Below are positions 613 through 19,792 of a stretch of DNA of 64,000 bases, in pieces; position 1 is the stretch's first letter; each line of letters opens with the position of its first letter. The stretch spans positions 448,001 through 512,000 of the forward strand of contig OY729426.1 in the NCBI GenBank assembly GCA_963422365.1, written 5' to 3'. A program made the translations under genes and the position numbers. The notes beneath the pieces were generated by a model, which saw only the letters and a program-made list of their open reading frames with translations, was not told the DNA's origin and ran no database searches. The DNA comes from Nitrospirales bacterium. GTDB lineage: Bacteria > Nitrospirota > Nitrospiria > Nitrospirales > UBA8639.

Positions 613-2622
613 TCATGACACGAGCCAATAGAAAAGTCCTATGGCCACAACCAGCCAAAGCACCATGACCAAGACATGGTGTTGAAGGATTCGTGGTTCA
701 ACTTTCTGCAACATATGACCTGTGGCATCAGCCTGATACCCCAATCGTTCGACAGGCTTCTCAGGCACACGGATATCAAAAACCTGCCACAGCCATCGGG
801 CAAGGGCAACGGATCCTTCGGCAAGACTCATGATCACGCGATCAATTCCTCCAAGATCAATGGTTTTCCATAACCAGCCGGCTAATCGAAGCATAGGTTG
901 AACCACATACACTTCATAGAGTTCGTCGACATACCACTTGTTGAGAAAAAGCACATACAGCGTTTTTCCCCACTCCGACTGTCCGAATGGGGACCGTCGA
1001 GGATTCCTATGCAGCCAGTAGGCGAATCCCGAACCACTCAATGCCACGACAAGCGGTAACACGATCCACAAAGAGCCCTCAGCCGTTGCAGGCAACTCGG
1101 CAAACAAGGGAACGGGCTGTGGCAGGGCAGGCGCTAAAAATTGAGCAAACCACGTCCAGAAGGCCACCAAAAGGCCAGCCATCACGGCTGCTCCGAATAC
1201 GACCCCGATCAGGTGAGGTGGTGAAAACAACCAAGGGCGAGCGATAAAAGAGCCAGCCTTCCCCTGGATTCCTACGGCAAGACTCTGTTGAAAAAGCGAG
1301 ATGATTCCTCGAAAGAGAGACATGCCCGTACAAAAAACCGTGGTTAAGCCAATCACCCAAAAGGCGACTTTCGCGGAGGCAAAATTCTGGACCGTCCACA
1401 AATATTCATAGGGTCCTGAAAAAATCACAAACGGAGGGATACAGGCTAGCATCAATGCTCCAAAGCACAAGACCCCCGTCGGTCGTAAAGCATGTCGGGA
1501 ATCAGGGTGTGCATGGCCATGGGCTTGGACGGATTGCAGGGCGTTGCCGGTCGATAAGAATAAAAACCCTTTCAAAAAGCCATGGGCCAACAAATGGAAA
1601 ATCGCGACGACGAACGCACCAACGCCACACGTCATGATCATGAATCCGATTTGGCTGATCGTCGAATAGGCCAAAAGCTTTTTAATGTCGGACTGGGTCA
1701 GAGAGACCAGGCCAGCGAACAGTGCGGTGGTCGCCCCAATGATCGCAATCACCGTCATCGCGACGGGAGAAAGCACAAACAACGGGCTCAATCGCACCAA
1801 CAGGAACGGACCGGCGTTTACCATGGTCGCAGCGTGAATCAACGCCGACACCGGAGTCGGGGCTTCCATCGCAACGGGTAGCCACACGTGGAGCGGGACC
1901 TGGGCAGACTTCCCTAAGGCCCCCATAAACAACAAGAGCGTAATGAGTGTCACGGTCTGAACCGGCAGATCGAATCCTGCCCACCCCAGCAGGTTCATGG
2001 TGTGCCCGCTCATGCTCTCGGCCTGAGCGAGAATCTGCTGGATATCGAGGGTCCCAAATGCGGCAAACGTGAGGATGACCCCGAACCCCAGTCCCATGTC
2101 CCCCACCGCATTCACCAAGAATGCTTTGGTTGCCGCTCGGCATGCGGACGGTCGCTCCGCCGAGTGGGAAATCAAGAGATACGAACAGAACCCCATGACT
2201 TCCCAAACAATGTACACGAGAAGCAGGTTGCTACTCATGACCAGCATGATCATGGAAAAGGTAAAGAGCGCAATAATGGCGAAGAAGCGACTATACCGTG
2301 AATCACCGATCATGTAGCGGGAAGCATAGATATGCACGACGCAGCTCACCCCTGTGACCAGCAACAACAGCAACACGGTCAGTTGGTCGATATATAGACC
2401 GAGGTCAACGATGAGATTGCCGGACTGCATAAGTCGATACAAAGGAATAGTAATCGGGCCATTGCTCAAGACTTCGACGAACGCGCCTATCGATAGACCA
2501 AAGGAGAGGCCTAACGCAGGAATAGCGACTTTGTGGCTTTTTTCTCCCAACAAGCGTCCCCCCAACGCGAGAGTCAGAAATGCCGTCAAGGGAAGAAGCG
2601 GGATCAGGACATACGCTGACAT
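613..2622 (-). CDS. nuoL: NuoL/MrpA/DabB(MpsA)-family antiporter-like subunit
   Basis: Motifs WEVMGFCSYLLI, KAFLVNAVGD, GKSAQVPLHVWLPVAMEAPTPVSALIHAATMV, DIKKLLAYSTISQIGFM, HLLAHGFLKGFLFL, NKWYVDELY. Confidence 0.9.
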   Translation of the reverse strand: MSAYVLIPLLPLTAFLTLALGGRLLGEKSHKVAIPALGLSFGLSIGAFVEVLSNGPITIPLYRLMQSGNLIVDLGLYIDQLTVLLLLLVTGVSCVVHIYASRYMIGDSRYSRFFAIIALFTFSMIMLVMSSNLLLVYIVWEVMGFCSYLLISHSAERPSACRAATKAFLVNAVGDMGLGFGVILTFAAFGTLDIQQILAQAESMSGHTMNLLGWAGFDLPVQTVTLITLLLFMGALGKSAQVPLHVWLPVAMEAPTPVSALIHAATMVNAGPFLLVRLSPLFVLSPVAMTVIAIIGATTALFAGLVSLTQSDIKKLLAYSTISQIGFMIMTCGVGAFVVAIFHLLAHGFLKGFLFLSTGNALQSVQAHGHAHPDSRHALRPTGVLCFGALMLACIPPFVIFSGPYEYLWTVQNFASAKVAFWVIGLTTVFCTGMSLFRGIISLFQQSLAVGIQGKAGSFIARPWLFSPPHLIGVVFGAAVMAGLLVAFWTWFAQFLAPALPQPVPLFAELPATAEGSLWIVLPLVVALSGSGFAYWLHRNPRRSPFGQSEWGKTLYVLFLNKWYVDELYEVYVVQPMLRLAGWLWKTIDLGGIDRVIMSLAEGSVALARWLWQVFDIRVPEKPVERLGYQADATGHMLQKVEPRILQHHVLVMVLWLVVAIGLFYWLVS

Positions 2623-2650
2623 AGGCTAGTCCAAAATGAACGATGACACA

Positions 2651-4120
2651 TTACAGCCCCGTGGGCAGAGCAGTCGTGAGCAAAAATCCGACAATCGGAT
2701 CGCTGCACAACCCCAAAATAATAATCGCAGCAGACGCGCCTCCCACACTCACCTTTAACGATAAGGGCACATCGACCGGACTCACCACAGGGGATAATTG
2801 ATTGTCCCGGAAAATACGTTCAAAGAGCTTAATAAAATAGGCCAACGTGAGAAGGGTTGAGACGAGCACGGCCCCGACCGCGAAATAATTCTGAACCTCA
2901 ATAGCGCCAAGGATGATGTACCATTTACCGAAAAATCCACCCGTTGGAGGAAATCCGACCATGGACATCGCCATAATGATGAGCGCACCGGTGATCCATG
3001 GGGCTTGCCCACGCAAACGGTTTAAACCATCGATTGTCCGGACGCCATACTGATAGATGATGGCACCAGCCAAGAAAAACAGGGCCGCTTGCATGACCGC
3101 ATCATTGATCAAATAAAACACGCCTCCTGCAAAACCGGTCGGACTTCCCAGGCCCACCCCGATGAGAATCAACCCAATATGAGAAATCCCGCCATAGGCG
3201 AACATTCGTTTGATTTCATGTTGAGCCAACGCGAGAAATGCCCCGATGACTGCTGCGATGGCCCCCAACTCTTCCAGGAGGACCAGGATAGAAATATGCT
3301 CAATTTCCGCCTGAGGCCCGACCACCCAAAACATGATTCGGACCCAGACGACTAACGCCGCTTTGGTGACCAAAGAAGCGAGGAAAGGTGAAATGGCCTC
3401 CGGTGCATGGGTATAGGCATCAGGCAACCATCCGTGAAGGGGCATGAGGGCCATCTTAATCCCAAGACCGAGAAACATGAAAATCAACCCTCCGACAATG
3501 GCTTTGGAAGTTAATAATTCAGGCACTCGTTGGGCCAAGTCGGCCATGTTCAGCGTTCCAGTCGCTGCATAAAAATATCCAACACCCAATAAATACAAGG
3601 AAGCCCCGAGTGCTCCCAAAATCAGATAACGAAAGGCCGAGATGAGAGCCTTACCACCTGCAACGCCTACCAGGGCATACCCTGATAACGCGGCAACTTC
3701 CAGGAACACGAACACGTTAAATAAATCCGCTGCAAAGATAATGCCCGTGATTGCCGAAAGCAGCAAAAGGATCAACGTATAGTACGGGACGACTCTCCGA
3801 CCCAGCGATTGGGGTGAGAGCGGTCCCTCGTTGATAAGGCAAAGCAATGCCAACAGGCTGAAGGTCACCATGACAACACTTGCCAACCCATCATCGACCC
3901 ATTCAATGCCAATCGGGGCTGCCCACCCGCTAAAGGCGTAGCGAATCTCTCCATCATTCAGGACGACCACGAGATTGGCAAGGGCAAGCGGACTCATGGC
4001 GGAAACGGCCACGAACGCCATGGGGCGACACCACTCACGATGTTTCAATCCGACAATGGGCAAAGAGAGCGCCGTCAAGAAGGGGAGCAGGAAGAGAAGT
4101 GCCGGCAAGTGATGATTCAT
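2651..4120 (-). CDS. mrpD: Mrp/Mnh cation:H+ antiporter subunit D
   Basis: DLFNVFVFLEV, GTLNMADL, GLGIKMALMPLHGWLPDAY, IKRMFAYGGISHIG, GFPPTGGFFGKW. Confidence 0.88.
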   Translation of the reverse strand: MNHHLPALLFLLPFLTALSLPIVGLKHREWCRPMAFVAVSAMSPLALANLVVVLNDGEIRYAFSGWAAPIGIEWVDDGLASVVMVTFSLLALLCLINEGPLSPQSLGRRVVPYYTLILLLLSAITGIIFAADLFNVFVFLEVAALSGYALVGVAGGKALISAFRYLILGALGASLYLLGVGYFYAATGTLNMADLAQRVPELLTSKAIVGGLIFMFLGLGIKMALMPLHGWLPDAYTHAPEAISPFLASLVTKAALVVWVRIMFWVVGPQAEIEHISILVLLEELGAIAAVIGAFLALAQHEIKRMFAYGGISHIGLILIGVGLGSPTGFAGGVFYLINDAVMQAALFFLAGAIIYQYGVRTIDGLNRLRGQAPWITGALIIMAMSMVGFPPTGGFFGKWYIILGAIEVQNYFAVGAVLVSTLLTLAYFIKLFERIFRDNQLSPVVSPVDVPLSLKVSVGGASAAIIILGLCSDPIVGFLLTTALPTGL

Positions 4121-4494
4121 TCCAACCTCTTTAAAATTTCATCTTCATCCAAGCTGCCATATTTCCGATAAATTCCTGCAACCAAGGCTAAAGAGACACC
4201 CAAGGTCGCGACCTGGACCACGATCGCCGTGAGCGTCAACACGTGGGGTAATGGATTGGGATAGATGGGAACCTGGGCTGAGTCTGTTTCAGACAAGAGG
4301 ATAGGAACCGTTGCGCCTGTTTTCACGCTTATCGCCACGATAAAGAAAATCACGCTGGTTTGCACGATATACAGACCAATGAGCTTTTTAACAAGGTTAT
4401 GGTGGGTCACCATGATGTAAAATCCCCCAAGAAACAGGATGACGAAGGCGATAAAATTTGGCCTGTGAAGCCACGCCTCAATGAGTTCAAGCAT
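4117..4494 (-). CDS. mrpC: Mrp antiporter subunit C
   Basis: NLVKKLIGL and NPLPHVLTLTAIVV motifs; ATG at 4494 overlaps the end of the upstream gene. Confidence 0.88.
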   Translation of the reverse strand: MLELIEAWLHRPNFIAFVILFLGGFYIMVTHHNLVKKLIGLYIVQTSVIFFIVAISVKTGATVPILLSETDSAQVPIYPNPLPHVLTLTAIVVQVATLGVSLALVAGIYRKYGSLDEDEILKRLE

Positions 4495-4936
4495 GGGAGT
4501 CCTCGTCTTCGTCATCGAACGACAGACTAAACACGATAGAGATCGCCGTCACAGCGACATCGACCGCCACACCGATTTGTGTCAGCAGGATCCCCAAATA
4601 ACGGCGTGAAGCGACTTCGAGTCCGGGGGTCTCGATGGCAGCGTAATTCAAAAATTCTCCTCCCCCGATCAGACACAATCCTCCGGCACCGGCAAAAATT
4701 AGTAACCCCAGCCCATCCCCATGCAGCATCTTCCTCGCCACATTGCTGGAAGAAGCGCTGGCCCCAAAAATGAGAATTGAGAAAATCATACTCGTGCCAA
4801 AAACAACCCCACCCACAAATCCTCCACCCGGGCCATACTGTCCAAAGAACAACACATACAGGCCAAAGAGTTGGGCCAAGGGAATCAGGACTCGTCCTAA
4901 CGTGAGAACGATGACGCTATCGTGTGCTTGGATCAT
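4487..4936 (-). CDS. mrpB: Mrp antiporter subunit B (MnhB domain)
   Basis: GQYGPGGGFVGG matches the MnhB GHxxPGGGF motif; hydrophobic helices. Confidence 0.85.
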   Translation of the reverse strand: MIQAHDSVIVLTLGRVLIPLAQLFGLYVLFFGQYGPGGGFVGGVVFGTSMIFSILIFGASASSSNVARKMLHGDGLGLLIFAGAGGLCLIGGGEFLNYAAIETPGLEVASRRYLGILLTQIGVAVDVAVTAISIVFSLSFDDEDEDSHA

Positions 4937-5463
4937 TCCCTGCGCCTCCTGAGCAACAAGGCGCAGGCAAGCCCGGATGTGAAGATCACGACCGTTTCAA
5001 TCAAAGTATCGAGAGAACGATAATCCATGAGCACCGACGTGACGACATTGGGCGTATGGGTGTCCTGCAGACTGTTCTCCAGGTAGACAGGAGCAACGTG
5101 AATGCTCGCGGGAGAAGCAGGATCTCCAAATCGAGGAAGATCACTGGCTGCATACAACAGGAGTAACCCCAGCAGAGGTAAGCCGATCAAAGCGGCCCAG
5201 GGAAGGGACGGACGATGCATACGAATATCCTTTTGAGCCGTTCCAAACAGCGTCAAGAGAAAAAACACCGTGGCCAAGCCGGCGCCCACAACCGCTTCGA
5301 CAAACGCCACATCGACGGCACCAAGCCAGGCCCACACCACCGCTAAAAAGAACCCGTAGGCACCTAAAATAAGCACTGCCGACAGCAAGTCTTTGACCAG
5401 AATGGCCCCGGCCGCTGTCAGAATCAGGAGAATCAGGAGAGGAATTTCAAATGAAAACGTCAC
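4933..5463 (-). CDS. DUF4040 / MrpA C-terminal-like subunit (MrpB')
   Basis: AVDVAFVEAVVGAG and TPNVVTSVLMDYRSLDTLIE motifs; GTG start overlaps the mrpG stop (GTGA). Confidence 0.82.
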   Translation of the reverse strand: MTFSFEIPLLILLILTAAGAILVKDLLSAVLILGAYGFFLAVVWAWLGAVDVAFVEAVVGAGLATVFFLLTLFGTAQKDIRMHRPSLPWAALIGLPLLGLLLLYAASDLPRFGDPASPASIHVAPVYLENSLQDTHTPNVVTSVLMDYRSLDTLIETVVIFTSGLACALLLRRRRE

Positions 5464-5759
5464 TGTTGTTCTCGTACCCACGGTTTGAGGCCCGAGCGAA
5501 AAGCCGCTCGAATGGTGGCGTGTGCAATGACAGGATTGATCAGATAGATCAGCGCGAGCACCACCAGAATTTTAAGCAAATTCATGCTGAATCCTTGATA
5601 GACGGCCAACCCTGCCAATATCAGAAACGCCCCCAAGGAATCCGTCAGTGAGAGCGCGTGGGAGCGGGCAAACACATCCGGCAAGCGCACCATGCCAATT
5701 GCCGCAACGACCAGAAAAAACAAACCAACAAGAATGAGCACAATGGCAATCACAGACAT
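5460..5759 (-). CDS. mrpG: Mrp antiporter subunit G
   Basis: GMVRLPDVFARSHA...NPVIAHA. Confidence 0.9.
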   Translation of the reverse strand: MSVIAIVLILVGLFFLVVAAIGMVRLPDVFARSHALSLTDSLGAFLILAGLAVYQGFSMNLLKILVVLALIYLINPVIAHATIRAAFRSGLKPWVREQQ

Positions 5760-6026
5760 TTACACATTTCCTCGCTGTTCAAGAAACTTGGCAATGGCCA
5801 AGGCCCCAACCAAATTCAACAGGGCATACCCCGTGGAGATATCCACGAACATGTCGACTCGTTCGTAGACGGTCCCGATCAGCACCAGCAAAATAATGGC
5901 TTTCGTCGAAATCCCATTCAGACCCAACACGCGGTCAAAGACCGTAGGCCCTCGGACCACACGATATAAATACACCAGAATGAGGACAGCGAGCACGATC
6001 AACACGCACAGAAAAAAGAATTTCAT
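5760..6026 (-). CDS. mrpF: Mrp antiporter subunit F
   Basis: RVVRGPTVFDRVLGLN; three TM helices; ends ...LAIAKFLE. Confidence 0.9.
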   Translation of the reverse strand: MKFFFLCVLIVLAVLILVYLYRVVRGPTVFDRVLGLNGISTKAIILLVLIGTVYERVDMFVDISTGYALLNLVGALAIAKFLEQRGNV

Positions 6027-6037
6027 TCTGAACTCGT

Positions 6038-6493
6038 TTATTCCTGGAACACCTGGCCAATTTTTTCTTCAAGGCGTTGTGTGGTCAGATCGTGGCCCGA
6101 TTCATCGTCTATGGCATGGACGATGAGTTCCTGGGCATTGACTTCGGCCGTGATCGTGCCTGGAGTCAGCGTGATGGAATTTCCAAGTAGGACCACGGCT
6201 TCCTGTCGCAGCAACTTCGTTTGATAATGAATGAGCTTCGGCGCAATCGGAAGAGAAGGATGAAGAATGAGCGTAGTCAGATGAAGGCTACTTTGCACAA
6301 TGCGCCCAAATAGCCAAGGCAGATACCCCAGAATTCGCCACACAAGTATTTTTCGAAAAAGAGAATCTGAGTGGCCCGAATTCAACCATGCCACGCCAAA
6401 AGATACTATCAGCCCTAGACCCATATGGAACGGGTTATACTTTACCGATAAAATGAGCCAAATAATAAAAAACGCGACTGTTTTAAGAAACAC
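6038..6493 (-). CDS. mrpE: Mrp antiporter subunit E
   Basis: LLGNSITLTPGTIT...LIVHAI signature. Confidence 0.9.
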   Translation of the reverse strand: MFLKTVAFFIIWLILSVKYNPFHMGLGLIVSFGVAWLNSGHSDSLFRKILVWRILGYLPWLFGRIVQSSLHLTTLILHPSLPIAPKLIHYQTKLLRQEAVVLLGNSITLTPGTITAEVNAQELIVHAIDDESGHDLTTQRLEEKIGQVFQE

Positions 6494-6609
6494 GGCGTTA
6501 GAGAAGAATCTCCATCTCCTTCATTATCAATCGTTCATTGTTTTCGAAAACCGGCATTCTTCTTGAAACCCGGTGCTGTTTTTTCATTGACGCACATGCC
6601 TTCGTTCAC

Positions 6610-6712
6610 AAAAAAAGCCAACCGGATGCCTCGAATGAATCATTCGAAAAGCCTCTGGTTGGCTTGTACTGTGCCTGCCCGTTCACTTGCTAGGCAGTCA
6701 CCCTACCGGCCA
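6610..6712 (-). promoter_or_regulatory. Candidate attenuator/riboswitch leader, copy 1 (upstream of mrpE)
   Basis: RNA GGCCG-GUAGGGUGA-CUGCCU...GGGCAG-GC-ACAGUACAAGCC overlapping terminator AAGCCAACC...GGUUGGCUUUUUUU; same architecture as copies at 11703 and 14699. Confidence 0.75.
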
Positions 6713-6928
6713 AGAGTATCGTCAATCGGTTCGCCAAGGATCCTCACCACGATCGCCTCCCGATCCCTGGGAACTCTTATACCAATATTGGGCTCATGAC
6801 ACAACAGCGTTGCTTGATACGGAAAAAAATTTCAAACAAGGAGGGAGGAGGAACGATCGTTGCTCCGCCTCCAGCGAGTCAAAACAATGACGGAAGCTTT
6901 CCGAAACCGGACTTGCGTTCTGCGTCTG

Positions 6929-8464
6929 TTATTTGCCACTGAGCGATAGAAAGAGCATCGAGCGTCCTCGTCTCAGGAGAACCAGGACCGAATCACTCTC
7001 ATCGAGTCGACCGGTGACGCGATCAAAGTCTTCCACATCCTTAATGGTGATTCGGTTGATTTCCAGGAAGATATCATCCTTTCGTATGCCGGCCCGTGCG
7101 GCACGACTGTCGGGATGAACCTTCAAGACGCGCACCCCCTTCTCATCAGAGGGGGACTCGGAAGCAACCGATTCGACCGTCAACCCCGACAGGACATGAC
7201 GGGCGCCTACCGTCCCCACCTCGCCGCTTCGCCCGGCCAAATGCTTGGGCATCTGTCCAATGACGACGGTGAGGCGCTCGTGGTTGCCTTCACGAAGAAT
7301 CCCCACGTCCACCTTGGTCTCCGGAGGAGTCTCGGCAACATAGGTGCGTAATTTAGTCGAATTTTCGACCGGACGTCCAGCATATTCACGAATGATGTCT
7401 CCCCGTTGAAACCGGCCCCCCTGTGCCGGGCTTCCCTCAATCACGTCGGTGACCAAGGCGCCTTTCGTCTCAGTTGTCTCAAATCGTTTCGCAAGATCAG
7501 GAGACAGGTCTTGGATGGAAACCCCGAGCCATCCTCGTACCACTTTCCCATACGCTTTCAAACTTTGCGCCACACCCTTGGCCATATTGCTCGGGATGGC
7601 AAAACCGATTCCCATATACCCACCGCTTCGGCTGAAGATTGCCGTGTTGATCCCGATGAGTTCCCCTTGCAAATTCACCAGAGCCCCGCCGGAGTTCCCC
7701 GGATTGATGGCCGCATCGGTTTGGATAAAATCCTCGTAATCGACAATGCCGACATTGGCCCGTCCCACGGCACTGATAATGCCCATGGTCACGGTCTGGC
7801 TCAGGCCAAAAGGATTCCCCACTGCCACGACCATTTCTCCAACTTGTAACGTGTTTGAATCACCCCAGGAGAGAAACGGCAAATCCGATGCTGCAATTTT
7901 TAAAATGGCCAGATCGGTTTTGGGATCAGTGCCGATCAATTGTGCGTCAAACTTTCTTTGATCCCCCACCACCACCTGAATTTCATCGCTCTCGGCCACC
8001 ACGTGATGGTTTGTGACAATATATCCGTCAGAATTGACAATGACCCCTGACCCCATGCCCTGTTGTTGGCGTTTGGGCGCCTGTCGGCGTTCTTCTTTGA
8101 ACCTGTCTCCGAAAAATCTCCGAAAGAATGGGTCGTCAAAGAATGGGGAATGGGGAAAAGGAGAACCTGGCGGAGCCGTCGTCTTCACGATGGAAATATT
8201 GACCACCGCAGGCTTGATCTTTTTCGCAATCGCGATGAGATGCTGATTGAAACGGAGAATATCGTCGCTCGTGGAGGGAAGAGAAAAACCGGCTTGTTGA
8301 ATCAGGGGCGTTTGAACGGTATGCTCTTCGGAAGCCTGAATGACCGTGGAGGGCTGGAAGAATGTCGCCCTCGCGCCTAAGACCCCACACACGCAGAGAA
8401 AAATCCCGATCCCCAGAACGACGGGGTTTTTCGTGACATTGATGAGTGACCATCGAACTCGCAT
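6929..8464 (-). CDS. degP: DegP/HtrA (Do family) serine protease with two PDZ domains
   Basis: GSGVI, TNHHVV, DPKTDLA, IQTDAAINPGNSGG, RGWLGV; N-terminal signal/TM segment. Confidence 0.93.
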   Translation of the reverse strand: MRVRWSLINVTKNPVVLGIGIFLCVCGVLGARATFFQPSTVIQASEEHTVQTPLIQQAGFSLPSTSDDILRFNQHLIAIAKKIKPAVVNISIVKTTAPPGSPFPHSPFFDDPFFRRFFGDRFKEERRQAPKRQQQGMGSGVIVNSDGYIVTNHHVVAESDEIQVVVGDQRKFDAQLIGTDPKTDLAILKIAASDLPFLSWGDSNTLQVGEMVVAVGNPFGLSQTVTMGIISAVGRANVGIVDYEDFIQTDAAINPGNSGGALVNLQGELIGINTAIFSRSGGYMGIGFAIPSNMAKGVAQSLKAYGKVVRGWLGVSIQDLSPDLAKRFETTETKGALVTDVIEGSPAQGGRFQRGDIIREYAGRPVENSTKLRTYVAETPPETKVDVGILREGNHERLTVVIGQMPKHLAGRSGEVGTVGARHVLSGLTVESVASESPSDEKGVRVLKVHPDSRAARAGIRKDDIFLEINRITIKDVEDFDRVTGRLDESDSVLVLLRRGRSMLFLSLSGK

Positions 8465-8653
8465 CGTACCTTCCTTATCTGAAAATCCTCACAACGACCA
8501 GCAATGAAATTATACCATAATCTTCCGCGTTGCACGTACTCGCTCTTCCGTCGCCGGCACGCTTGCCGCATAACAACGTTCAACGAGGCCTAGACGGCGT
8601 TCGCCTCTTGCCTTACACAGCCCGATGACCGTGACAATGGAGAAACACGTCCC

Positions 8654-11600
8654 TCATCCAATGGGTTCCCATGTGGCATCGGGATGATAGCGATGAAACA
8701 CAAAGGTATGTGGATCGAGGGCCAAGAGATTGAGCCATTGGTTCTGGAAGAGTTGCTGCAGGATCGCATGCTTCTGAATGATGGACGCGATTCGACTCGG
8801 CGGCGCTTCAATAATACCCAGAAGCCGCATCGGTTCGTGATAATGGACGTCACCGTCGTTGACCGTCTGTAAGGGAAATCCTATCTGCAAATCACTCTGG
8901 CTTCCCAACATCACCCCCACGCCCGACACGACGTTGTGGATCACCTTACTCCCACTTCCATAGTGCCACGGATCAACGGCGGAAAAGTAATATCCGGTGT
9001 TAATCCACTCTCCGACGATCAATGGGGCCGTCATGATTTTTTCGAGATTGTTTCCCTCCGCGTCGGCAAGCGGATCATAGGAATGTAAGAAGACGCGACC
9101 GCCTAAATTCAGGCCTTTGGTCAGGCTTCGACGCCCGATTAAAAAAGCCGCATTGCCGGCCAGCCCCCATTCCGGTCGAGGATTGGCCCAATCGCGGCTG
9201 CGTTCCTCGACGTGAGCCAACGCCTGTTGAGGAGAAATCCCGGTCGGCGCGCTTGGAATGCGATGACATCGTTCCAATGCTTGGGTCATGCCCGCTTGTT
9301 CCAAATCCCGGCTCAACACCTGTACATCCTCCGTATGACTCTCGGGCAAGTCTTGCAGATCATAAAACGTGACCCGATCAGTGGTGGTATTGTGCTTGGC
9401 CGGCAGAAACCAGGTATCCTCAGGAATGGGCAATCCCTTTTCGTTGAGGATGCGCCGAACCTCCGGTTCGTTGGCCATGGCCGCAAACACGCGTGCGTTG
9501 GCGTCCCCGGGGTTGCCTCCGCAGGCCCCGCAATCCAATGCCGCGAAATATGGATTGTTGTCCGTCTGACTTCCATGCCCACAGAGCACGACTAGCCGAC
9601 CGTAGTTCCGGGTCAACCCCATGACCCGAAGCCCATTCTCGATGAAGGTGGCCCGCTCGGTAAGGGAGAACCCTTGTGCGAGCCCAGCGGAATCCCTTCG
9701 GGCTTCATCTCTCCCCATTGGGGATTGCCTGGATCGGACGGTGAAGACACCGAGATCTGTGTCGGAACCGGACGGGGAACCCCTCCTTGAAGTTTTGATT
9801 GAATCGCATGGAACGCTTTGGGAATCAGCGTTTTGCCGATTAACCCGAGACTAAAGAAAAACCCCAGCACGTCAATCAGCATCATCGACCCGACGGGATT
9901 ATGTTTTAGATCGTGAAAGAGATGACGACCCAGTTGCTGCCATTGCGCCCCGGTCGAATATTGCTGCAAGGCGCGTTCTTCGCCGAGTCGAGGAATTTCC
10001 GTTACCGCATGGTTGGGAGAAAGTAACACCGGGCATAAGGCAGACCGTTCCTCGCTATCAAAGGCTTGATGACTGATAGGAATACCGAAAAACCCGGCGA
10101 ACCCAAGCGTTTCATACGGACCCTGCGCCTCGACGTGTCGACGGAACGATTCCGATCGGACATCAATGCAGCACACGAGTTGTGCGCGCGGGCGAGTGCC
10201 GAGTGGCGGCACCGTTCCGCGATGGGCCGAAAGTTTTTGGATGATCTCGCCTAGAAAGGCATCTTCATACGCTTCAAGCCACACCGGGCCGTGCCGATCC
10301 AGGGGAAAGACATCCAGCCATCCTAATACCATTCGCGCCTCAGCCACGGAAAGATCGGTCATCTCGAGAGGTGACAGCTCCAAAATTTGAGCAAGGTGAA
10401 ACAGCCGCCAGGCATCACGGCAGATCGCCTGTTCCGCGGCATCGACCGCATGCGTGCCTTCCCCCATTCGGTTCTTGTATTCATCCGGACGATCCTGCCA
10501 GTAGGCGATCAGCGCCGAAACGTTTCCGTCAATCCCCCATTCTCGCTGACAGGCCACATGCGTCAATTCGGATTCATAAAACACACGCACCGCCAGATAC
10601 TGAACGGCATCAACAGGGTGTTTTTGTTGCGCGTGATACGCGGGATTCGTCTCAAGCCAACGAACGTATCGCGTCCAACCCGGCAATTGGGATAACTGCC
10701 GTGAGAGGTAATCGCTCCAGAGCTCCTGTGGAATGCCCAGACGATGCAGACTCGACACAATCGCATCCTCAGGCTCAGGCGGAAGATTGTTGACTTTCTC
10801 CCGTAAATCTCGAATGCCCAAAAAGCGGCTGGACCGATCGCGTTGCGCAAGCTCTCGCCAAGCCGCATAGAATCCCCCGTGCCTGCAGGGCATTTCCCAT
10901 CCGGCTAATCCTTCATCGACAAACGCCGCAAACCATTTGATGAGTTGGTTATTGATCTGTTCGACCAAGTCCGTTCCAGCCAAGACATCCACCCAATCGC
11001 TGGTGGTTTGCTGAGACGGCAAGGCAATGTCGATGGAAGCGCGTGGCCCCTCTGACACGTTTAGGCTTGCATGCCCGGCGGCGTGGTCGCCGGACAGAGC
11101 ATCGGACAGCCCTAATGCCGACAATATGGCTTGCCACAGCTTCGCAAGATACGCCTCCTCGGGATGATCCCGACATTGCTCACACTCTCGGAGCATTCGC
11201 TCGATGATGCGTTGTCTGGATTCGTCTGAAAGGTCGTGGCGAAATCGTTTCGTGGCTCCATCACCGCCGAGTTCCCATTGCAGCAGGGCGGGCTCCAACG
11301 CCTCAAATCCAAACACCACATGCCCATGCCACACCTCATCGACCGTGATCCGACGACTCCCGACCGTAATCGCCTGTTGTGTGTCCTGTCGAGGGCCCAT
11401 TCGCGCTAAGGCCCGGTTGAGACTGTCGCGGGTGATGCGTCCCGCTCGATAAAACCGACGATACTCTTCATTAGGCAAGTACCCATTTCCACCAAGAAGC
11501 TGTTTGCCTTTTTGAACGGCCTGATCAAAGGGAAGATATTCGAATCCGTGCAAGGGATTTTGGGCAACCATGACTTGCATGGGCCAAAAGGGTGGAATCG

Positions 11601-11679
11601 GTTCGCTAGCCTGGGCAACCGTCTGGCGGAGCAGATCGCGTTCTTCTTGGGAAATCGCATGCATCGACGTGGTGCTCAT
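8654..11679 (-). CDS. dabA: DUF2309 / DabA (MpsB) beta-carbonic-anhydrase-like subunit of the inorganic carbon pump, split by one frameshift near 9683-9685
   Basis: N part (9613-11679): PFWPM..VAQNPLHGFE, QLPGW, CIDVRSE, GFAGFFG, CPVLL. C part (8654-9718): GHGS..NNPY..ALDCGACGG, HNTTTD, DWANPRPEWGLAGNA, FLHSYD, YHEPMRL. One extra G in CTG GG(G) CTC joins the frames (~1008 aa). Confidence 0.9.
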
Positions 11680-11702
11680 AACATTGCTTGTGCCTTGCTA
11701 GG

Positions 11703-11800
11703 AAAAAACCAACCGTTTTCGTTCCATCCATCTCAGAAAAACACGGTTGGCTCGTCCTGTCACTGAACGCTTTGTCGGGAAGCCCAGCCACCACACAGCC
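11703..11800 (-). promoter_or_regulatory. Candidate attenuator/riboswitch leader, copy 2 (upstream of dabA)
   Basis: RNA GGCU-GUGUGGUG-GCUGGGC...GUUCAGU-G-ACAGGACGAGCC overlapping terminator AGCCAACCG...CGGUUGGUUUUUU; ends ~23 nt before the dabA ATG. Confidence 0.7.
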
Positions 11801-11992
11801 TTCGTTCGTAGGTCAGACTCAATCCGGGACCACCTGCCTGCTTTCATGTGCATACCTGCCTCAGGGAAGCAGGGGGGGCTCTCCTTGACCTCTACAAAGT
11901 CATGGCTTATACCATTGTTATATCAGGGACTGCAGACGGGCTCAAGAGATTTCTGGTCAGCCAAAAGCTCTTCCAACCCTGTGACCCCCCCT

Positions 11993-12364
11993 ATGAAAAA
12001 TGGATCGACCAAAGGCGAAGTTGAGACAGCCATCCGCAATGCCGTCATCAAATTCGAACAAGAATTTATGGGGCGCGGGCCGACCGAGGTCAAGGCGTTC
12101 ATCCTTCATGACATAGTCTTGGTACGGCTCAAGGGCGTCTTGACTCCAGCCGAGCGTCAACTCGCGAAAAATACTGAGGGGGTTGATATGGTCAAACGCA
12201 TGCGGCAGAACCTGATCTCACAAGGACGGGAAAGACTCTGTAGCCAAATTGCAGCCATTACCGGGACAGAAGTCACAGGCCTGTTCACCGATATCGAAAC
12301 GCACATCGGTGAGCGGATGATTGTCTTTACTCTTGAAAATGACCTCGACAATACCTCTCGCTAG
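11993..12364 (+). CDS. mpsC: DUF2294 / MpsC family protein
   Basis: TKGEVETAIRNAVIKFEQEFMGRGP..VLVRLKGVLTPAE..L.TDI....GERMIVFTL; divergent from dabA; ATG 11993 preferred over the longer track ORF. Confidence 0.88.
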   Translation: MKNGSTKGEVETAIRNAVIKFEQEFMGRGPTEVKAFILHDIVLVRLKGVLTPAERQLAKNTEGVDMVKRMRQNLISQGRERLCSQIAAITGTEVTGLFTDIETHIGERMIVFTLENDLDNTSR

Positions 12365-12551
12365 CCCACCACAGTCTTCACAAACATTTCCACGTTCTAT
12401 TGGCAGAAAAATCCAAAAAGGACTTCTAGCCCTCGGATAGAGGATTGAGGAAAAATTTGGACATGGAACGATACGAAAAGGGTTACGAGAGAATGTTCCC
12501 GGCGGGAAAGGGCCTAAGGATGCCTTCGGCTTTCGGAGAAAAACGAATAGC

Positions 12552-12707
12552 TTAGAAAATCTTGGCTATCAACGCACGAAATGGGTTGACAGCCGCTTCA
12601 GATTTCGCACCACTCTTAGCTTGGGAAGAAGAAACATTTTTTTCGTCTTTCTTCGGTGCTTTTTGATCACAGTGAAGACTTCTGTACAAGATACGAAATT
12701 CACTCAT
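12552..12707 (-). CDS. Small hypothetical protein (51 aa), probably sigma-54 driven
   Basis: MSEFRILYRSLHCDQKAPKK...NPFRALIAKIF; SD GGAGGGGGG before the ATG; consensus sigma-54 site upstream. Confidence 0.6.
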   Translation of the reverse strand: MSEFRILYRSLHCDQKAPKKDEKNVSSSQAKSGAKSEAAVNPFRALIAKIF

Positions 12708-12753
12708 GATATCCCCCCTCCAAAGGTTTGAACAAGAACTGTTTCTGGTATGA

Positions 12754-12769
12754 AGCAAAGGAGGTGCCA
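12754..12769 (-). promoter_or_regulatory. sigma-54 (-24/-12) promoter
   Basis: TGGCAC-CTCCT-TTGCT, exact match to TGGCAC-N5-TTGCW. Confidence 0.75.
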
Positions 12770-13025
12770 AGTTTCACAAAGGAACATCTTCAAATAAAAC
12801 TCTAAAAAAACAATTTGTTATGAATATAAAACGCTAGATCGTCCAACAATGATGAGGGAATAAGCAAAAACGCACATGCTCGGATGAGCGAAATCGCACC
12901 AAAATACTGGGAGCAACATGGCTATCATGGGCTATTAGGGCGATGGGTCTGGAAGGAAATGGGAGGAGAACGCACGCAATCCGTTACGTGCAGCTTGTCG
13001 CTCTTCAAAAAAGAATGAAGCCCCT

Positions 13026-14666
13026 CTAGCCCTTAGGCTTTACGTGAGCAGCCACGATGGAGTCAGCCATCGGGCGGTGCTGGGCCAACCCCCGAATGAA
13101 CAACTCACAACCCTTTTCTTCGAATTCGTTGGTCCATTCATAAAGTTTTGACATCACGGTGTGATCGACAAGTCGCGTCTCGGCCAGATTCAGGGTAACT
13201 GTTTTCCCTTCCTCGAGAAAGCGATGAAGATGCTTGCGCAAGGGAATCCACGTACTGAAGACGGCGGACTCTCGCACCACAATGATCGCTGAGTGATCAT
13301 CTTCATGCGTGACCTCAGCATGTAATTTGAAAAACGAGGGAATCGGTGCGCCATTCATGATGTGAATGGCGACCTTGACTCCTATTCCAATGCCGATTCC
13401 CAACAGGAGATCTGTCGCAAGCACGCCCACGATCGTGGACACAAACACAATGAACTGGTCTTTTCCCAAATGATACATATGGAGAAACTCTTGTGGAGAC
13501 GCCAACCGAAACCCCGTAAAGACCAACAACGCGCCTAAGGCCGCCAGAGGGATCTGGTTGATAATCCCTGGAATCACGGCGACGAATGCCAGCAGACACA
13601 GCCCATGAAACATGTTGGCAAATCGCGTCCTCGCCCCATTATCGATGTTCGCTTTGCTTCGAACGATCTCCGAAATCATCGGCAACCCGCCCACCAAGGC
13701 CGCCAGCGTATTGCCGAGGCCCACGGCAAGCATGTCTCGATCCAAATTCGTCTTTCGCTGCCAGGGGTCGATCTGATCGATGGCCTTCGCACTGAGTAAC
13801 GACTCAAGGCTCCCAATTAAGGCAAACATGATCACGTACTTGATTCCGATCGAAGTGGTTAACCCTGAGAAATCCGGGAACGTGAGGGCATTGAACATGT
13901 TCTTCGGAACATCCACCAAAAACTTTGTTCCTACAGCAGCCGTCTGCTCATGAACGGTGTAGGTGGCTTCTTGGCTGATATTCAAATACAGCCCCATGGG
14001 AACCGCGACGAACAACACAAGCATCGGCGCTGGAATCACTTTCCATTTGGGGTGTTTGATCAGCGTAGACCCAACCATAATGAGGAGACTCACGATCCCG
14101 ATCAAGCCAATTTTGGGATTCATCTCCATGACAAAATTCGGGATACCGGCCAACAACTCTAATGGGGTGCCTTCTGGGCTCAGCCCCATGACCACCGGAA
14201 ACTGTTTGGCGATGATGATGACCCCGATGGCTGACAATAATCCATGAATCGCCGTTGTCGGGAAAAATTCCCCAAGAATCCCGGCACGGAAGACCCCGAA
14301 CAAAATTTGAATGAGGCCTGCGGCCACCCCGACTCCAAGCGCTAACCGATAGGCTTGAAAGTCGGCAGCAGGATCCTTCCCGCCGGTAAACCCGAATTCA
14401 GTCACACACCCGATGGCGATCACGATGAGTCCAGCAGCCGGGCCTTTGATCGTGAGTTCTGAATTACTAAAGAACGTGGCCATGATGCCGCCGATAATGG
14501 CGGTAAAGATGCCGGCAATGGCAGGATACCCACACGCCAAGGCAATGCCGAGGCACAGTGGAAGCGCAATCAGAAAAACAAGAAATCCGGAAAGAAGGTC
14601 TGCCCTCCAGTTTTGCTGAAGTCCGGCAAGTGTTCCTCTCGGTATCTCTGCTCCATCAGTGTTCAT
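13026..14666 (-). CDS. SulP/SLC26 family anion (probably bicarbonate) transporter with C-terminal STAS-like domain
   Basis: DLLSGFLVFLIALPLCLGIA, GPAAGL, SLESLLSA, GGLPMISEIVRS, IPLAAL, DLLLGI; substrate inferred from dabA context; alternative GTG start at 14675. Confidence 0.9.
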   Translation of the reverse strand: MNTDGAEIPRGTLAGLQQNWRADLLSGFLVFLIALPLCLGIALACGYPAIAGIFTAIIGGIMATFFSNSELTIKGPAAGLIVIAIGCVTEFGFTGGKDPAADFQAYRLALGVGVAAGLIQILFGVFRAGILGEFFPTTAIHGLLSAIGVIIIAKQFPVVMGLSPEGTPLELLAGIPNFVMEMNPKIGLIGIVSLLIMVGSTLIKHPKWKVIPAPMLVLFVAVPMGLYLNISQEATYTVHEQTAAVGTKFLVDVPKNMFNALTFPDFSGLTTSIGIKYVIMFALIGSLESLLSAKAIDQIDPWQRKTNLDRDMLAVGLGNTLAALVGGLPMISEIVRSKANIDNGARTRFANMFHGLCLLAFVAVIPGIINQIPLAALGALLVFTGFRLASPQEFLHMYHLGKDQFIVFVSTIVGVLATDLLLGIGIGIGVKVAIHIMNGAPIPSFFKLHAEVTHEDDHSAIIVVRESAVFSTWIPLRKHLHRFLEEGKTVTLNLAETRLVDHTVMSKLYEWTNEFEEKGCELFIRGLAQHRPMADSIVAAHVKPKG

Positions 14667-14698
14667 GCTCGTCACCCCATTTATCCTGTACGCGGCAG

Positions 14699-14799
14699 AA
14701 AAAAAGCCGGTTGCTCTTCAGGGATCATGTTCCCGAATGCTCAACCGGCTTGTACTGTCGCTGGCCTCAGACAGCCGATAACCAGCTACCCTACACACC
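14699..14799 (-). promoter_or_regulatory. Candidate attenuator/riboswitch leader, copy 3 (upstream of sulP)
   Basis: RNA GGUGU-GUAGGGUA-GCUGGUU...GGCCAGC-G-ACAGUACAAGCC overlapping terminator AAGCCGGUUG...CAACCGGCUUUUUUU. Confidence 0.75.
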
Positions 14800-14935: not shown

Positions 14936-16372
14936 TTAAAATTGATTCGAGTTCATCCACAGATGAACGAGGATACTCGCCGCATAACCAAGCGCAATGA
15001 CCGGGGTCCATTTGAGGTGACCAAAGAACGTATACTTGCCTCGTGCCTGCCCCATCAACGCCACCCCGGCGGCTGACCCAATCGATAGCATGCTCCCCCC
15101 AACCCCGGCCGTTAAGGTCACCAACAGCCACTGCCCCTGAGACATCTCGGGATTCATCGTCAACACGGCAAACATCACCGGAATGTTATCGACGATGGCG
15201 GACAAGATCCCGACCATCGTATTCGCAAACGTGGGCCCCCATCCGACATACATCACCTGAGCCACCACCGCGAGGTAGCCGAGAAAACCCAACCCTCCCA
15301 CACACAGGACGACTCCATAGAAAAACAGCAAGGTATCCCATTCTGCACGGGCAACTTTTTGAAAGATATCGAACGGAACCACATCGCCATGAACTCCCCG
15401 AGCGTTCTTCTCACTCGAGGGTCCCAGCTCCACATATGTATTGTGCGTCTTTTTCAGGTAATATCCCCAAAATCCCAGGTAGGCCAAGCCGGTCATCATG
15501 CCCACCATGGGTGGGAGGTGAAGGAAGTTATGAAAACTCACGGCGGTACAAATGGTGAAAAAGAATAAGAGCATAATCACCTGTGCCCCCCGCTTCATGA
15601 CCACCACTTCGTCTGACGGCGCCGGTGACACCTGAGGAACGGCGAAGTGCATCAACCCGGCCGGCACGATGAAGTTGACTGCCGAGGGAACAAACAAGAG
15701 GAAAAACGTGAAAAAATCCACAATCCCTTTTTGCCACACCATCAACGTCGTGATGTCGCCAAAGGGACTGAACGCCCCACCCGCGTTGGCCGCCACGACA
15801 ATATTGACACACGCCAAACTGACGAACCGAGGATTATCTGCCCCAACCGCAAGCACCACGGCGCACATCAGCAAGGCCGTCGTCAGATTGTCCGCCACCG
15901 GCGAAATAAAGAACGCCAAGATTCCCGTGAGCCAAAACAGTTGACGATAGGTCAACCCCCTGCGCACCAACCACGATCGCAGACTTTCGAAGACCAGCCG
16001 TTCTTCCAGAGCATTGATGTACGTCATGGCGACAAGCAGAAATAACATCAATTCTGCGTATTCGAGAATATTGTGACGGAGCGCTTGCGCAACGACATGA
16101 GGATCATTGCCGGGATACGCCCAAGCCACCAACGCCCAAATGATTCCCGCAGCCAACATGACGGGTTTTGATTTTCTGAGGTGTGTAAACTCCTCGGCCA
16201 TGACCAACGCATAGGCCAGCACAAAAATACCCAGCGCGAAATACCCAATGGGTGAATGGGTCAGATCAAGCTGGGCAACTGGACCCTCCGCACCCCAACT
16301 GAGTTCAGGAAAGCCGAGCAGCAGCGCGACGCTGCTGAAGGAGAAAACGGTTATTGAGGGGTGATTCATCAT
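14936..16372 (-). CDS. nhaD: NhaD-type Na+/H+ antiporter
   Basis: EEFTHLRKSKP, FLLVAMTYIN, SPVADNLTTAL, ANAGGAFSPFGDITT, SAIVDNIP, GGSMLSIGSAAGVALMG; start uncertain (track ORF extends to 16552). Confidence 0.9.
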   Translation of the reverse strand: MMNHPSITVFSFSSVALLLGFPELSWGAEGPVAQLDLTHSPIGYFALGIFVLAYALVMAEEFTHLRKSKPVMLAAGIIWALVAWAYPGNDPHVVAQALRHNILEYAELMLFLLVAMTYINALEERLVFESLRSWLVRRGLTYRQLFWLTGILAFFISPVADNLTTALLMCAVVLAVGADNPRFVSLACVNIVVAANAGGAFSPFGDITTLMVWQKGIVDFFTFFLLFVPSAVNFIVPAGLMHFAVPQVSPAPSDEVVVMKRGAQVIMLLFFFTICTAVSFHNFLHLPPMVGMMTGLAYLGFWGYYLKKTHNTYVELGPSSEKNARGVHGDVVPFDIFQKVARAEWDTLLFFYGVVLCVGGLGFLGYLAVVAQVMYVGWGPTFANTMVGILSAIVDNIPVMFAVLTMNPEMSQGQWLLVTLTAGVGGSMLSIGSAAGVALMGQARGKYTFFGHLKWTPVIALGYAASILVHLWMNSNQF

Positions 16373-16575
16373 GACGAGTTTGCCGTCAGCCAATTTTTGG
16401 GAAACATAGCAAAGACGGAAATCCTTTCTCAATAACTTTGGAATAGATAGACTATCTCGGAAATCGGCAGAAACAGACTTGACGAGAATCGTCAAACCCC
16501 AGGAGAGCACACGCAAAAACTTTCCCATCCCGTCGCACGGCAGGACGTTCAAAAGCGAACTGCTGAAACAGCTTG

Positions 16576-17160
16576 TTAATTCAAGGGCACTTCGATGACG
16601 AGCCCCCCCATCACATCATTAAGTTTGAAATCACGCTTTGGAGACTCGGTGTGCGCATTATGACAAGATACGCAGGCTCGACTCACGGCCCGGTCCGGAT
16701 AGATCGCCTGAAAATAGCGTTTGTGATTCAGCGTCATTTCGCCTTCCATCACCTCGCCGAATTTGACGACTTGTTCCACCATCTGCCGTTCCTGATCGGA
16801 AACGGGAGCATTTCGGGAATTGAGAGGCCAGAGACTGACTAACCGATAGCGAAACGGAGCATCTCGCAAACGAAGACTTCGAGATGCTTCGCGTAAAAAT
16901 TGGGCGGGCAAAGGCAAGGTTTTATCATTCACCCAATCTTCGGAAGCATTCACAATAAGCATGGCTTCCATACGCGCGACAACGTGCTGCGTATAAAAAG
17001 TTCGATCGGCCTCAATCACCCCGTGGAGGTAATCAGCAACGGTTCTTGCAGGAATACCCTGGACGGGAAGTCTTTGAGTACTGATGATCCATCCCAACAC
17101 AATTCCCAGCAAAAGGATCACCCCGCACAAACCGACTGTTCGTAGATTCAGGTCTTTCAT
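16576..17160 (-). CDS. DUF3365 (Tll0287-like) c-type heme sensor-domain protein
   Basis: N-terminal TM; LPLPAQF; YRLVSLWPLN..NAP; CVSCH; FKLNDVMGG. Confidence 0.8.
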   Translation of the reverse strand: MKDLNLRTVGLCGVILLLGIVLGWIISTQRLPVQGIPARTVADYLHGVIEADRTFYTQHVVARMEAMLIVNASEDWVNDKTLPLPAQFLREASRSLRLRDAPFRYRLVSLWPLNSRNAPVSDQERQMVEQVVKFGEVMEGEMTLNHKRYFQAIYPDRAVSRACVSCHNAHTESPKRDFKLNDVMGGLVIEVPLN

Positions 17161-17861: not shown

Positions 17862-19790
17862 ATGCGAATTTTTCGAAGATTTAACAACCTTCCGATTGAG
17901 AAAAAGCTCCTTCTCGCCTCGGTTATTCCTATTCTCACGCTCGGTGTCCTCAGCATCGTCACCTTTAATAGTGTTCAAACCTTTTCTCAAGATGAAGACC
18001 GGCTCAACCAAGTGTATCATATTCAAACTACTGCCGCCGACTACTTGCGACTGATTGTCGATTTAGAGACCGGCTTCCGCGGATTCGTCTTAACTCTCCA
18101 ACCAAAATTTCTGAATCCCTATCATGCAGCGAAACAGCGCGTGTTACAGGTTGGACGGACCCTTGCCCAAATGGTGGAACACGATAACAAACAACACGCT
18201 GAAATCTTGCAAGCGCAATCCCTGGTTCAAACGTTACTGAAAGATAAGGATCGTTTGATTGAACAAGCGAAGCTAGGCCATTCGGATCAAGCGCTTCAGT
18301 ACATCGAATCCGGGGCAGGACGGGGGCTGATGTTGAACATTCGAGAACAAATTGCTCGTTTTGATAAGCGGGAAGGCGATGTCTTACGACAGACCTTGGA
18401 ACGAGCATCGCATGACCGGGGCTTTCTTTTGAGTGTGATTGTGGGTGGAGGATCGCTGGCTCTTATCCCCATGGTGTTTGTTCTACGTCTTTTAGCGCAA
18501 TCGATTGCCGGTCCCTTGGTCACTCTGGCCAAATCTGTTGAAAACCGACCAGGCGGGACTGTCCCGGACGTCCCGATCTTAGACCGAGGAGATGAAATCG
18601 GTGACTTGACCAGAGTCATGCACGAGATGAGTCAGCAAATTCGAGAATTCATTGGTCAAATCCAAAAATCGGAAGCTGAGTTGCGCAACCTGAATATGGA
18701 CCTGTCGAATTCAGAATCCAAATATCGGGGAATTGTGGACCACGCCCCCTTTGGTATTTTTACCGCCAAGGACGGCCGAATTATTTTTTGTAATCGCCAT
18801 AATTGGATTCTGGCCGGACAAGATCCAGACGATCCCTTGGACCCGGAATGTATCTGGGATGCCATTCACCCCGGTGACCGCAACCAAGTGTATGGGTCGT
18901 TCTCGAAGGCGACGGGGCAACAGGTTCCCTTTGAAAATGTCTTTCGTTTTGTTCATCCCGATGGGACCACGCATAAGGTCCTGAGCCGCGCAATCCCCAT
19001 TAAAAATGGACAAGGGGGCGGTTCGCTGTATCAAGGCTTTAATGTTGACATCACCGCTTTTGAACAAATGAAGGAAACACTCAGCCGGACGGAACGCCTC
19101 GCCACCTTGGGACAGGTAGCAGCAGGCATCGCGCATGAAATTCGAAATCCCCTTGTTGGCATCGGCTCAACGACTTCGTTACTCATGGAAGATTTTCCGA
19201 ATGAAGACCCCAAACGACAGGACCTGCAAACGATCCTCAAAGAAACCCGCCGGCTGGACCGGATCGTGACTCAGATTGTCGAATACGCCAGACCTCGTGA
19301 CATCGTCCCAGGGTCATTTGAGATGGCCGCGCTTGTTGAAGAAACCTTGGACCTCTTACGGCATCCTGTCGACCAGAAACACCTCAACGTGACCGCGACC
19401 TTTTCCCCGGAACTTCCTGCACTCGAAGCCGATCGTGATCAGGTCAAGCAAGTGGTGCTCAACGCGATTCAAAATTCCATCGAGGTCTTAGGAGAGAACG
19501 GGACAATTCGGGTCGAAGCCCGAGAGGAATTACGAGACGGGTACAGAGGGCTGCTCACCACCATTCATGACAATGGGAAAGGAATCAGCCCGGAGGATCT
19601 CCCGAAAATTTTTGATCCCTTTTTTACGATGGGGAAAAGACGAGGTACAGGGTTGGGGTTAGCCATCTGCCGAAATATCATTGAAGCTCATGGGGGAAGC
19701 ATCCGGGCTGAGAGTCAAGTGGGGGTTGGAACCGTCATGTCCATCTGGCTTCCGTTAACCCTTCAACAACAACCCGCAACCGTGGCCTAA
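17862..19790 (+). CDS. Sensor histidine kinase (CHASE3-HAMP-PAS-HisKA-HATPase)
   Basis: DLETGFRGFVLT (CHASE3), DEIGDL (HAMP), IHPGDR (PAS), IAHEIRNPL (H box), DNGKGI, FDPFFT, GTGLGL. Confidence 0.93.
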   Translation: MRIFRRFNNLPIEKKLLLASVIPILTLGVLSIVTFNSVQTFSQDEDRLNQVYHIQTTAADYLRLIVDLETGFRGFVLTLQPKFLNPYHAAKQRVLQVGRTLAQMVEHDNKQHAEILQAQSLVQTLLKDKDRLIEQAKLGHSDQALQYIESGAGRGLMLNIREQIARFDKREGDVLRQTLERASHDRGFLLSVIVGGGSLALIPMVFVLRLLAQSIAGPLVTLAKSVENRPGGTVPDVPILDRGDEIGDLTRVMHEMSQQIREFIGQIQKSEAELRNLNMDLSNSESKYRGIVDHAPFGIFTAKDGRIIFCNRHNWILAGQDPDDPLDPECIWDAIHPGDRNQVYGSFSKATGQQVPFENVFRFVHPDGTTHKVLSRAIPIKNGQGGGSLYQGFNVDITAFEQMKETLSRTERLATLGQVAAGIAHEIRNPLVGIGSTTSLLMEDFPNEDPKRQDLQTILKETRRLDRIVTQIVEYARPRDIVPGSFEMAALVEETLDLLRHPVDQKHLNVTATFSPELPALEADRDQVKQVVLNAIQNSIEVLGENGTIRVEAREELRDGYRGLLTTIHDNGKGISPEDLPKIFDPFFTMGKRRGTGLGLAICRNIIEAHGGSIRAESQVGVGTVMSIWLPLTLQQQPATVA

Positions 19791-19792
19791 AC

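Follow-up and report, generated by a model that had tools for sequence, protein, structure and literature searches.

Leaders of CO2/bicarbonate-uptake and ion-transport genes in nitrite-oxidising bacteria carry an RNA stop-or-go switch that is real and uncatalogued. It is described here from the window, a stretch of 64,000 nucleotides (nt) from a Nitrospirales bacterium (GCA_963422365.1, contig OY729426.1, positions 448,001-512,000 of the forward strand; genome of 2,495,695 bases), in which three minus-strand copies head the mrpE operon, dabA and sulP. Each copy is a single long hairpin that shares its last five bases with an intrinsic terminator. The attenuator is tightly linked to mpsC, a gene of the DUF2294 family (PF10057), and the comparative evidence favours a reading in which the hairpin would be bound by a protein, with MpsC as the candidate. 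We consider it probable that the element is a protein-dependent transcription antiterminator resembling the ribonucleic antiterminator (RAT) and read by MpsC, the predicted binding being suggested by linkage, co-loss and fusion.

Structure and folding of the element

Covariance model R1 was built from 35 copies, and 114 hits from 98 sources were realigned to give model R2, which holds 110 distinct rows. The copies of the window, with their R2 scores, and the adjacent mpsC are as follows.

6661..6711 (read 6711-6661), minus strand: antiterminator hairpin of copy 1, leader of the mrpE operon; 63.6 bits
6610..6665, minus strand: intrinsic terminator of copy 1, U-tract 6616-6610; AAGCC common with the hairpin
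11749..11800 (read 11800-11749), minus strand: antiterminator hairpin of copy 2, leader of dabA; 42.2 bits
11703..11753, minus strand: intrinsic terminator of copy 2, U-tract 11708-11703; from fold energies
14747..14799 (read 14799-14747), minus strand: antiterminator hairpin of copy 3, leader of sulP, behind nhaD; 54.8 bits
14699..14751, minus strand: intrinsic terminator of copy 3, U-tract 14705-14699; from fold energies
11993..12364, plus strand: mpsC (DUF2294, PF10057), 123 amino acids, divergent from copy 2; candidate trans-acting factor

The initial annotation had proposed three minus-strand elements at these places, and the coordinates of the hairpins and U-tracts were confirmed. Its sequence pattern has exactly three matches in the genome, which are the three copies, and model R1 also returns only these three. 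The inner stems that it quoted are present and paired in the predicted folds, and the downstream genes that it named, mrpE (PF01899), dabA (PF10070) and a SulP-family permease (PF00916), were identified again.

The hairpin, 51-53 nt long in the window, consists of a GGY/RGCC basal helix, a first internal loop, a GUR/UAC helix, a second internal loop (GG/AG) and a variable upper stem, with the last five bases (RAGCC) also opening the terminator. Both internal loops are near-invariant and the apical loop is unconserved. Within 70 nt upstream no position is conserved above 54%; a second conserved hairpin was sought in the copies and none was found, and UCGA occurs in the terminator of only 59 of 110 copies. 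Among the 110 rows, 92.2% of alignment cells pair, against 23-40% in slid controls. Two-sided changes are found at 8 of 16 pairs, and the covariation score, obtained from an alignment that was fitted to the covariance model, was reached by none of 500 shuffles. The covariation sits in the upper stem; since the basal helix and the GUR/UAC helix are, like both internal loops, nearly invariant, their pairing is predicted and not proven.

A terminator is present in 108 of the 110 copies (median of 7 T in 8 nt), with covariation between its arms at four positions. In 104 of the 108 it gives the minimum-energy fold, with a median margin of 5.7 kcal/mol; in the window, the terminator and antiterminator folds have energies of -41.4 and -36.6 kcal/mol (copy 1), -31.5 and -29.6 (copy 2) and -43.2 and -38.6 (copy 3). 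Because the terminator draws in the final five hairpin bases and is favoured by about 5.7 kcal/mol, termination is the default. In 92 of 108 copies the end of the terminator 3' arm lies 39-44 nt past the hairpin, and by computation the hairpin is complete about 40 nt before this arm is made. The two folds had been described as mutually exclusive, which is correct for the basal helix and the first internal loop, where the 5 nt (RAGCC) are contested, and incorrect for the upper hairpin, which the minimum-energy fold keeps together with the terminator. The element is therefore a default-OFF attenuator, with the contest limited to the basal helix and the first internal loop, and the proposed antiterminator/terminator logic stands as conserved. 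Switching in vivo is predicted from the sequence and fold energies. Of the three, the dabA copy is the least canonical, scoring 42.2 bits where copies 1 and 3 reach 63.6 and 54.8, and its full-length fold has a z-score of only -1.4, the other two having -3.6 and -4.0.

Distribution and linkage to mpsC

A first, looser genome pattern was dropped because its matches equalled those of the control. A close version of the pattern of the initial annotation had 84 matches, spread over 66 of 301 genomes from the order, against none for the reversed-pattern control, and R2 matches 112 of 151 genomes of the order, so that the homologues sought with a covariance model were obtained. The genes behind the 114 hits are 53 NuoL-like genes (leading dabB-like...dabA operons), 18 mrpE, 16 dabA, 15 sulP and one nhaD, with 11 unassignable on short loci. 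The shared regulon proposed from the window is thus upheld as to dissolved-inorganic-carbon uptake and Mrp-type genes. The SulP protein of the window may have bicarbonate as its substrate; with the BicA model it reaches 117 bits, well short of the cut-off of 880.

Over genome contigs, a strict pattern gave at least 119 stretches, 80 of them named, and among the matches listed 37 of the 80 named were Nitrospirota. Only two of the 43 non-Nitrospirota among the matches listed passed a crude U-tract filter, and these were dropped for weak stems; the 43 stretches were later reused as controls. Because the named records that carry the element are Nitrospira/Nitrospirales, the element appears to belong to this order. 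In 151 genomes of the phylum, all matches of R1 fell within two Nitrospirales families, and R2 found nothing in 17 non-Nitrospirales mpsC loci or in 121 Bacilli genomes, a set that holds no positive control. The strict element is thus limited to the order among the sets searched.

In the window, the single mpsC of the genome lies on the other strand from the dabA copy, at a distance of 193 nt from its start. When 80 metagenome loci were fetched by the MpsC protein alone, a copy was present in 69, and in 63 of the 80 it was divergent from mpsC at 160-372 nt. Among the 151 genomes of the order, R2 was found in 112 and PF10057 in 108 (both in 101, RNA only in 11, MpsC only in 7, neither in 32); the Fisher p-value of this co-occurrence is 8e-17, with related genomes not being independent. 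The seven MpsC-only genomes comprise two whose mpsC has internal stops, two with a weak copy near mpsC and three (G068, G073 and G092) without a findable copy. In G068 (L362, 8176-9020), mpsC is divergent from a gene with an SbtA-like start, as judged by eye, and no leader element was detected there.

The element also decays with mpsC. Within the genus, the best copy reaches at least 49 bits in all 20 genomes with mpsC, against 25.9-36.9 bits in six of the seven mpsC-negative genomes with a hit. A perfect core is kept by 39 of 55 copies accompanied by mpsC (one chance hit is included in the 55), against 2 of 13 where mpsC is lost or broken. According to trees built from degP (22 rows) and from sulP (26 rows), mpsC must have been lost separately at least three to four times.

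Related hairpins, the MpsC protein and competing readings

At mpsC loci of other phyla, a related hairpin, GG(A/C)AGAY...RUARGCC, was recognised by eye, and it overlaps a terminator in the same way. A descriptor fixed beforehand was applied to 65 new mpsC loci and to 71 control loci (313 kilobases, kb), and it matched 15 times in the 36 non-Bacilli mpsC loci (116 kb) and twice in the 71 controls (p 2e-7 per base). By group, hits were obtained in 7 of 9 loci from the phylum of the Desulfobacterales record and in 8 of 27 from Bacillota at large. This descriptor is loose, since it matches 17 places in the genome of the window itself, and one or two hits look like chance. A tighter pattern, made post hoc, was found in 18 of 68 mpsC loci, in none of the 71 controls and at no place in the genome of the window. 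The genes behind the related copies encode phosphoenolpyruvate (PEP) carboxylase (2), SbtA, beta-carbonic anhydrase (2), DUF4914 and MpsC itself; other copies precede HtpX-like, Usp and MFS genes, and four precede genes without a family. In one Metabacillus locus (L358, 8838-10160), mpsC is divergent from a kdp-like operon, whose leader we take, by eye, to resemble a cyclic di-AMP riboswitch with another terminator behind it.

Nitrospirales and the other mpsC lineages have different loop sequences, GUAGGGU/CAGUACAAGCC and GGAAGAY/RUARGCC respectively, even before the same dabB-dabA genes. In the MpsC tree, 18 of 18 Nitrospirales proteins group together on a single long branch, in agreement with the derived RNA subtype; 6 of the 21 "other-type" labels were assigned by eye. 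Since the Nitrospirales clade represents a single event, this tree does not prove co-evolution. Of the Bacilli mpsC loci, 27 of 32 adjoin dabB-like/dabA or sbtA genes, which contrasts with the passages of the Staphylococcus aureus paper that describe mpsC as collocated with mpsAB only in staphylococci (PMC6689103). The MpsABC system of those passages consists of the same three families (NuoL-like DabB, DabA and MpsC), and they assign no function to MpsC and describe no leader RNA (PMC6689103).

MpsC is found as the C-terminal domain behind a receiver domain in three proteins and also in one PP2C-type phosphatase. Because of this position, it may be a regulatory output domain; the fusions suit such a role rather than that of a transporter subunit. 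Among P0274, P0280 and P0276, fusions of MpsC to beta-carbonic anhydrase, possibly artefacts of read-through, were seen beside that to the PP2C phosphatase. The AlphaFold model of MpsC (predicted local distance difference test, pLDDT, 90.5) shows an alpha-beta-beta-alpha-alpha-beta-beta domain. Sequence search found no solved MpsC structure, and the Atlas gave only MpsC clusters.

The initial annotation had not decided between a riboswitch and a protein-bound RNA, and it had mentioned MpsC only as a factor to try. With MpsC as the reader, the hairpin would form first, leaving an interval of about 40 nt before the terminator closes. MpsC could then bind the two internal loops and protect the basal helix, and the protected hairpin would let RNA polymerase read into dabAB, sulP and the mrp-type operon. 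More speculatively, the activity of MpsC would report the inorganic-carbon supply, the protein being active when CO2/HCO3- is short, or a coupled pH/Na+ state; the signal is most likely inorganic-carbon shortage or such a coupled state. In S. aureus, passages of PMC6689103 report that mpsA falls 1.7-2.5-fold in 5% CO2.

Among known systems, the closest in layout is RAT with BglG/SacY/LicT/GlcT. As described in parts of PMC5393181, RAT is one hairpin with a variable apical loop, two conserved internal loops and a 3' end shared with the terminator, and termination is the default, all as in the Nitrospirales element. The RAT hairpin is, however, 29-30 nt long with a 6-10-nt terminator overlap, whereas the Nitrospirales element has 51-53 nt, a 5-nt overlap and another sequence. 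RAT controls sugar phosphotransferase-system genes, whereas the Nitrospirales element precedes genes for inorganic-carbon and cation transport, with a PF10057 protein as candidate partner. CAT_RBD (PF03123) was found in none of five genomes tested (control positive in 4 of 14), nor was HutP (PF09021) in the five. The element would work like the RAT/LicT system without being a member of it, the RNA and the candidate protein both being unrelated.

Several observations weigh against MpsC as the reader. In Bacilli, the descriptor fixed beforehand hit only 1 of 29 mpsC loci and a looser post-hoc pattern 4 of 32, and the single staphylococcal mpsAB-mpsC locus examined (L416) showed no element. No copy is present in 11 of the 80 metagenome mpsC loci, and none was detected in G068, G073 and G092, which keep mpsC, while G031 lacks mpsC and keeps a 56.7-bit copy. 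Terminators mostly persist after the loss of mpsC, and they would then silence intact mrp operons unless they are leaky. Decayed copies also precede broken dabA genes in genomes that have mpsC, and because decay tracks broken dabA as well, some of the correlation can come from a dispensable pathway being lost as a whole. As to the protein, fold searches give no clear match: the best (Z 6.7) is to unrelated proteins, and several KH type II proteins rank lower, RbfA at Z 5.8 (root-mean-square deviation 3.8, 88 residues aligned) and Era KH at 4.8, all below Z 8; Foldseek with the MpsC model gave nothing at E<=0.001, the GxxG loop is absent and the net charge is zero. Passages of PMC6689103 report that the S. 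aureus mpsC deletion mutant grows normally in air and that the mpsA and mpsB mutants do not, so that MpsC is not a required activator of mpsAB in this species.

An alternative that we regard as unlikely is an ON riboswitch of a new class, in which Na+, another small ligand or pH would be sensed in the tandem internal loops and mpsC would be a linked gene acting separately in the same pathway. Such a switch would agree with the near-invariance of the loop nucleotides, with the three genomes that have mpsC and no copy of the RNA, and with the few good copies that occur where mpsC is absent. The ON logic and the gene set (Mrp, NhaD and cation-coupled inorganic-carbon transporters) resemble Na+-I regulons (PMC9337991, in part). 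Terminator control of the ON type over cation-transport genes is shared with Na+-I (DUF1646, RF03071), Li+-I (nhaA-I, RF03057) and Na+-II, as far as the relevant parts of PMC9337991 and PMC9646797 describe them. The Na+-I and Li+-I aptamers in these parts, however, need two hairpins and a conserved P2 loop, whereas the Nitrospirales element has one hairpin and no conserved flank. A Na+-I riboswitch was accordingly rejected, with no RF03071 match, one hairpin against a two-hairpin aptamer, and differing published construct sequences. The core, moreover, decays once mpsC is lost, the difference in loop sequence between lineages is more readily explained by a protein partner evolving with the RNA than by an unchanging small ligand, and, as regards Na+, the related copies precede carbonic anhydrase and PEP carboxylase genes, not Na+ genes.

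The initial annotation had not recognised the motif as a known class, and catalogue searches agree. Rfam 15 gave no match in the window at the gathering score and none on the copies at E<=10 (families including nhaA-II, sul1 and the Na+-II variants), nothing relevant in 20 homologous Nitrospirales loci and none in 20 other mpsC loci. The RF03071 search missed the copies at E<=10, and RF03057 matched no copy in five genomes. Neither the motif nor an RNA-binding role of MpsC is described in the literature searched, whose coverage leaves out most subscription papers, and the 224-motif supplement of PMC5737381 or later non-Rfam catalogues could hold the motif.

Less probable again is a protein-bound attenuator with other wiring, in which MpsC would repress, would work through or with a second protein, or would leave the binding to another protein. 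The normal growth of the S. aureus mpsC mutant (PMC6689103, in part) would suit this, as would the terminators that outlast mpsC before apparently intact mrp genes. Default-OFF energetics, however, imply that a factor on the intact hairpin would activate. An ANTAR protein (PF03861) occurs in four of five genomes tested, far from the locus, and could be the other binder. ANTAR systems (NasR/AmiR/EutV) share with the candidate system antitermination by a small output domain found behind receiver domains, like MpsC, but their targets, as given in parts of PMC3369931, are twin 3-bp hairpins with A1/G4 hexaloops, which are absent from the Nitrospirales element, and G100 has three copies and no ANTAR match. 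A constitutive leaky attenuator or RNA-stability hairpin without regulated switching could account for the five-base overlap and for the coexistence of most of the hairpin with the terminator, but it is very improbable, since it would have no need of unpaired loop bases that hardly vary among 110 distinct copies, of a basal helix competing with the terminator, of a terminator length kept at 39-44 nt (92 of 108) or of recruitment to four different genes.

Gene neighbourhood and implications

The other features of the window are as follows.

613..6493, minus strand: mrpE-F-G-B-B-C-D and a NuoL-like gene (mrpE, PF01899); the operon extends beyond the window start
6929..8464, minus strand: degP-like protease, between dabA and copy 1
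8654..11679, minus strand: dabA (PF10070), two overlapping open reading frames, 9613-11679 and 8654-9718
13026..14675, minus strand: SulP-family anion permease (PF00916), no STAS domain detected
14936..16552, minus strand: nhaD Na+/H+ antiporter, upstream of copy 3 (NF038006, 638 bits, cut-off 80)

The two-frame split of dabA is most likely a one-base assembly error rather than a real frameshift, because three public sequencing runs, two of which may be the source of the window DNA, show one extra base at 9688. This dabA is the sole one of the genome, and no dabB adjoins it; behind it come degP and the Mrp/NuoL-like operon (613-11679), an order that is kept in relatives. In several genus members that have a second dabB-dabA operon (L334, L335, L371, L372, L376, L209), the dabA linked to Mrp is truncated. 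The sequence TGGTATAAG occurs on the minus strand both at 6784-6776 and at 11914-11906, preceding copies 1 and 2 by 65-105 nt, and looks by eye like an extended -10; it was not reported by the promoter scan, which gave a sigma-70 site at none of the three leaders and also missed the long terminators. A Tll0287-like gene (16576-17160) precedes nhaD in many relatives, and a CHASE3-PAS kinase and a sigma-54 response regulator are divergent at 17862-21187.

As a wider proposal, which we hold only tentatively, DUF2294/MpsC might be a so far unrecognised family of RNA-binding antiterminators that itself senses CO2/bicarbonate. DabAB, SbtA, SulP, carbonic anhydrase and PEP carboxylase would then be controlled at the RNA level in nitrifiers and many other bacteria, and the Nitrospirales element would be a derived subtype that changed with its protein. 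An element of about 110 nt and a protein of 123 amino acids are compact enough for direct heterologous testing. If true, the finding would assign a role to a widespread protein family that is at present mistaken for a transporter subunit, would add a new RNA-protein antitermination family, and would show how Nitrospira-type nitrifiers, major autotrophs of soils, waters and treatment plants, tune carbon uptake.

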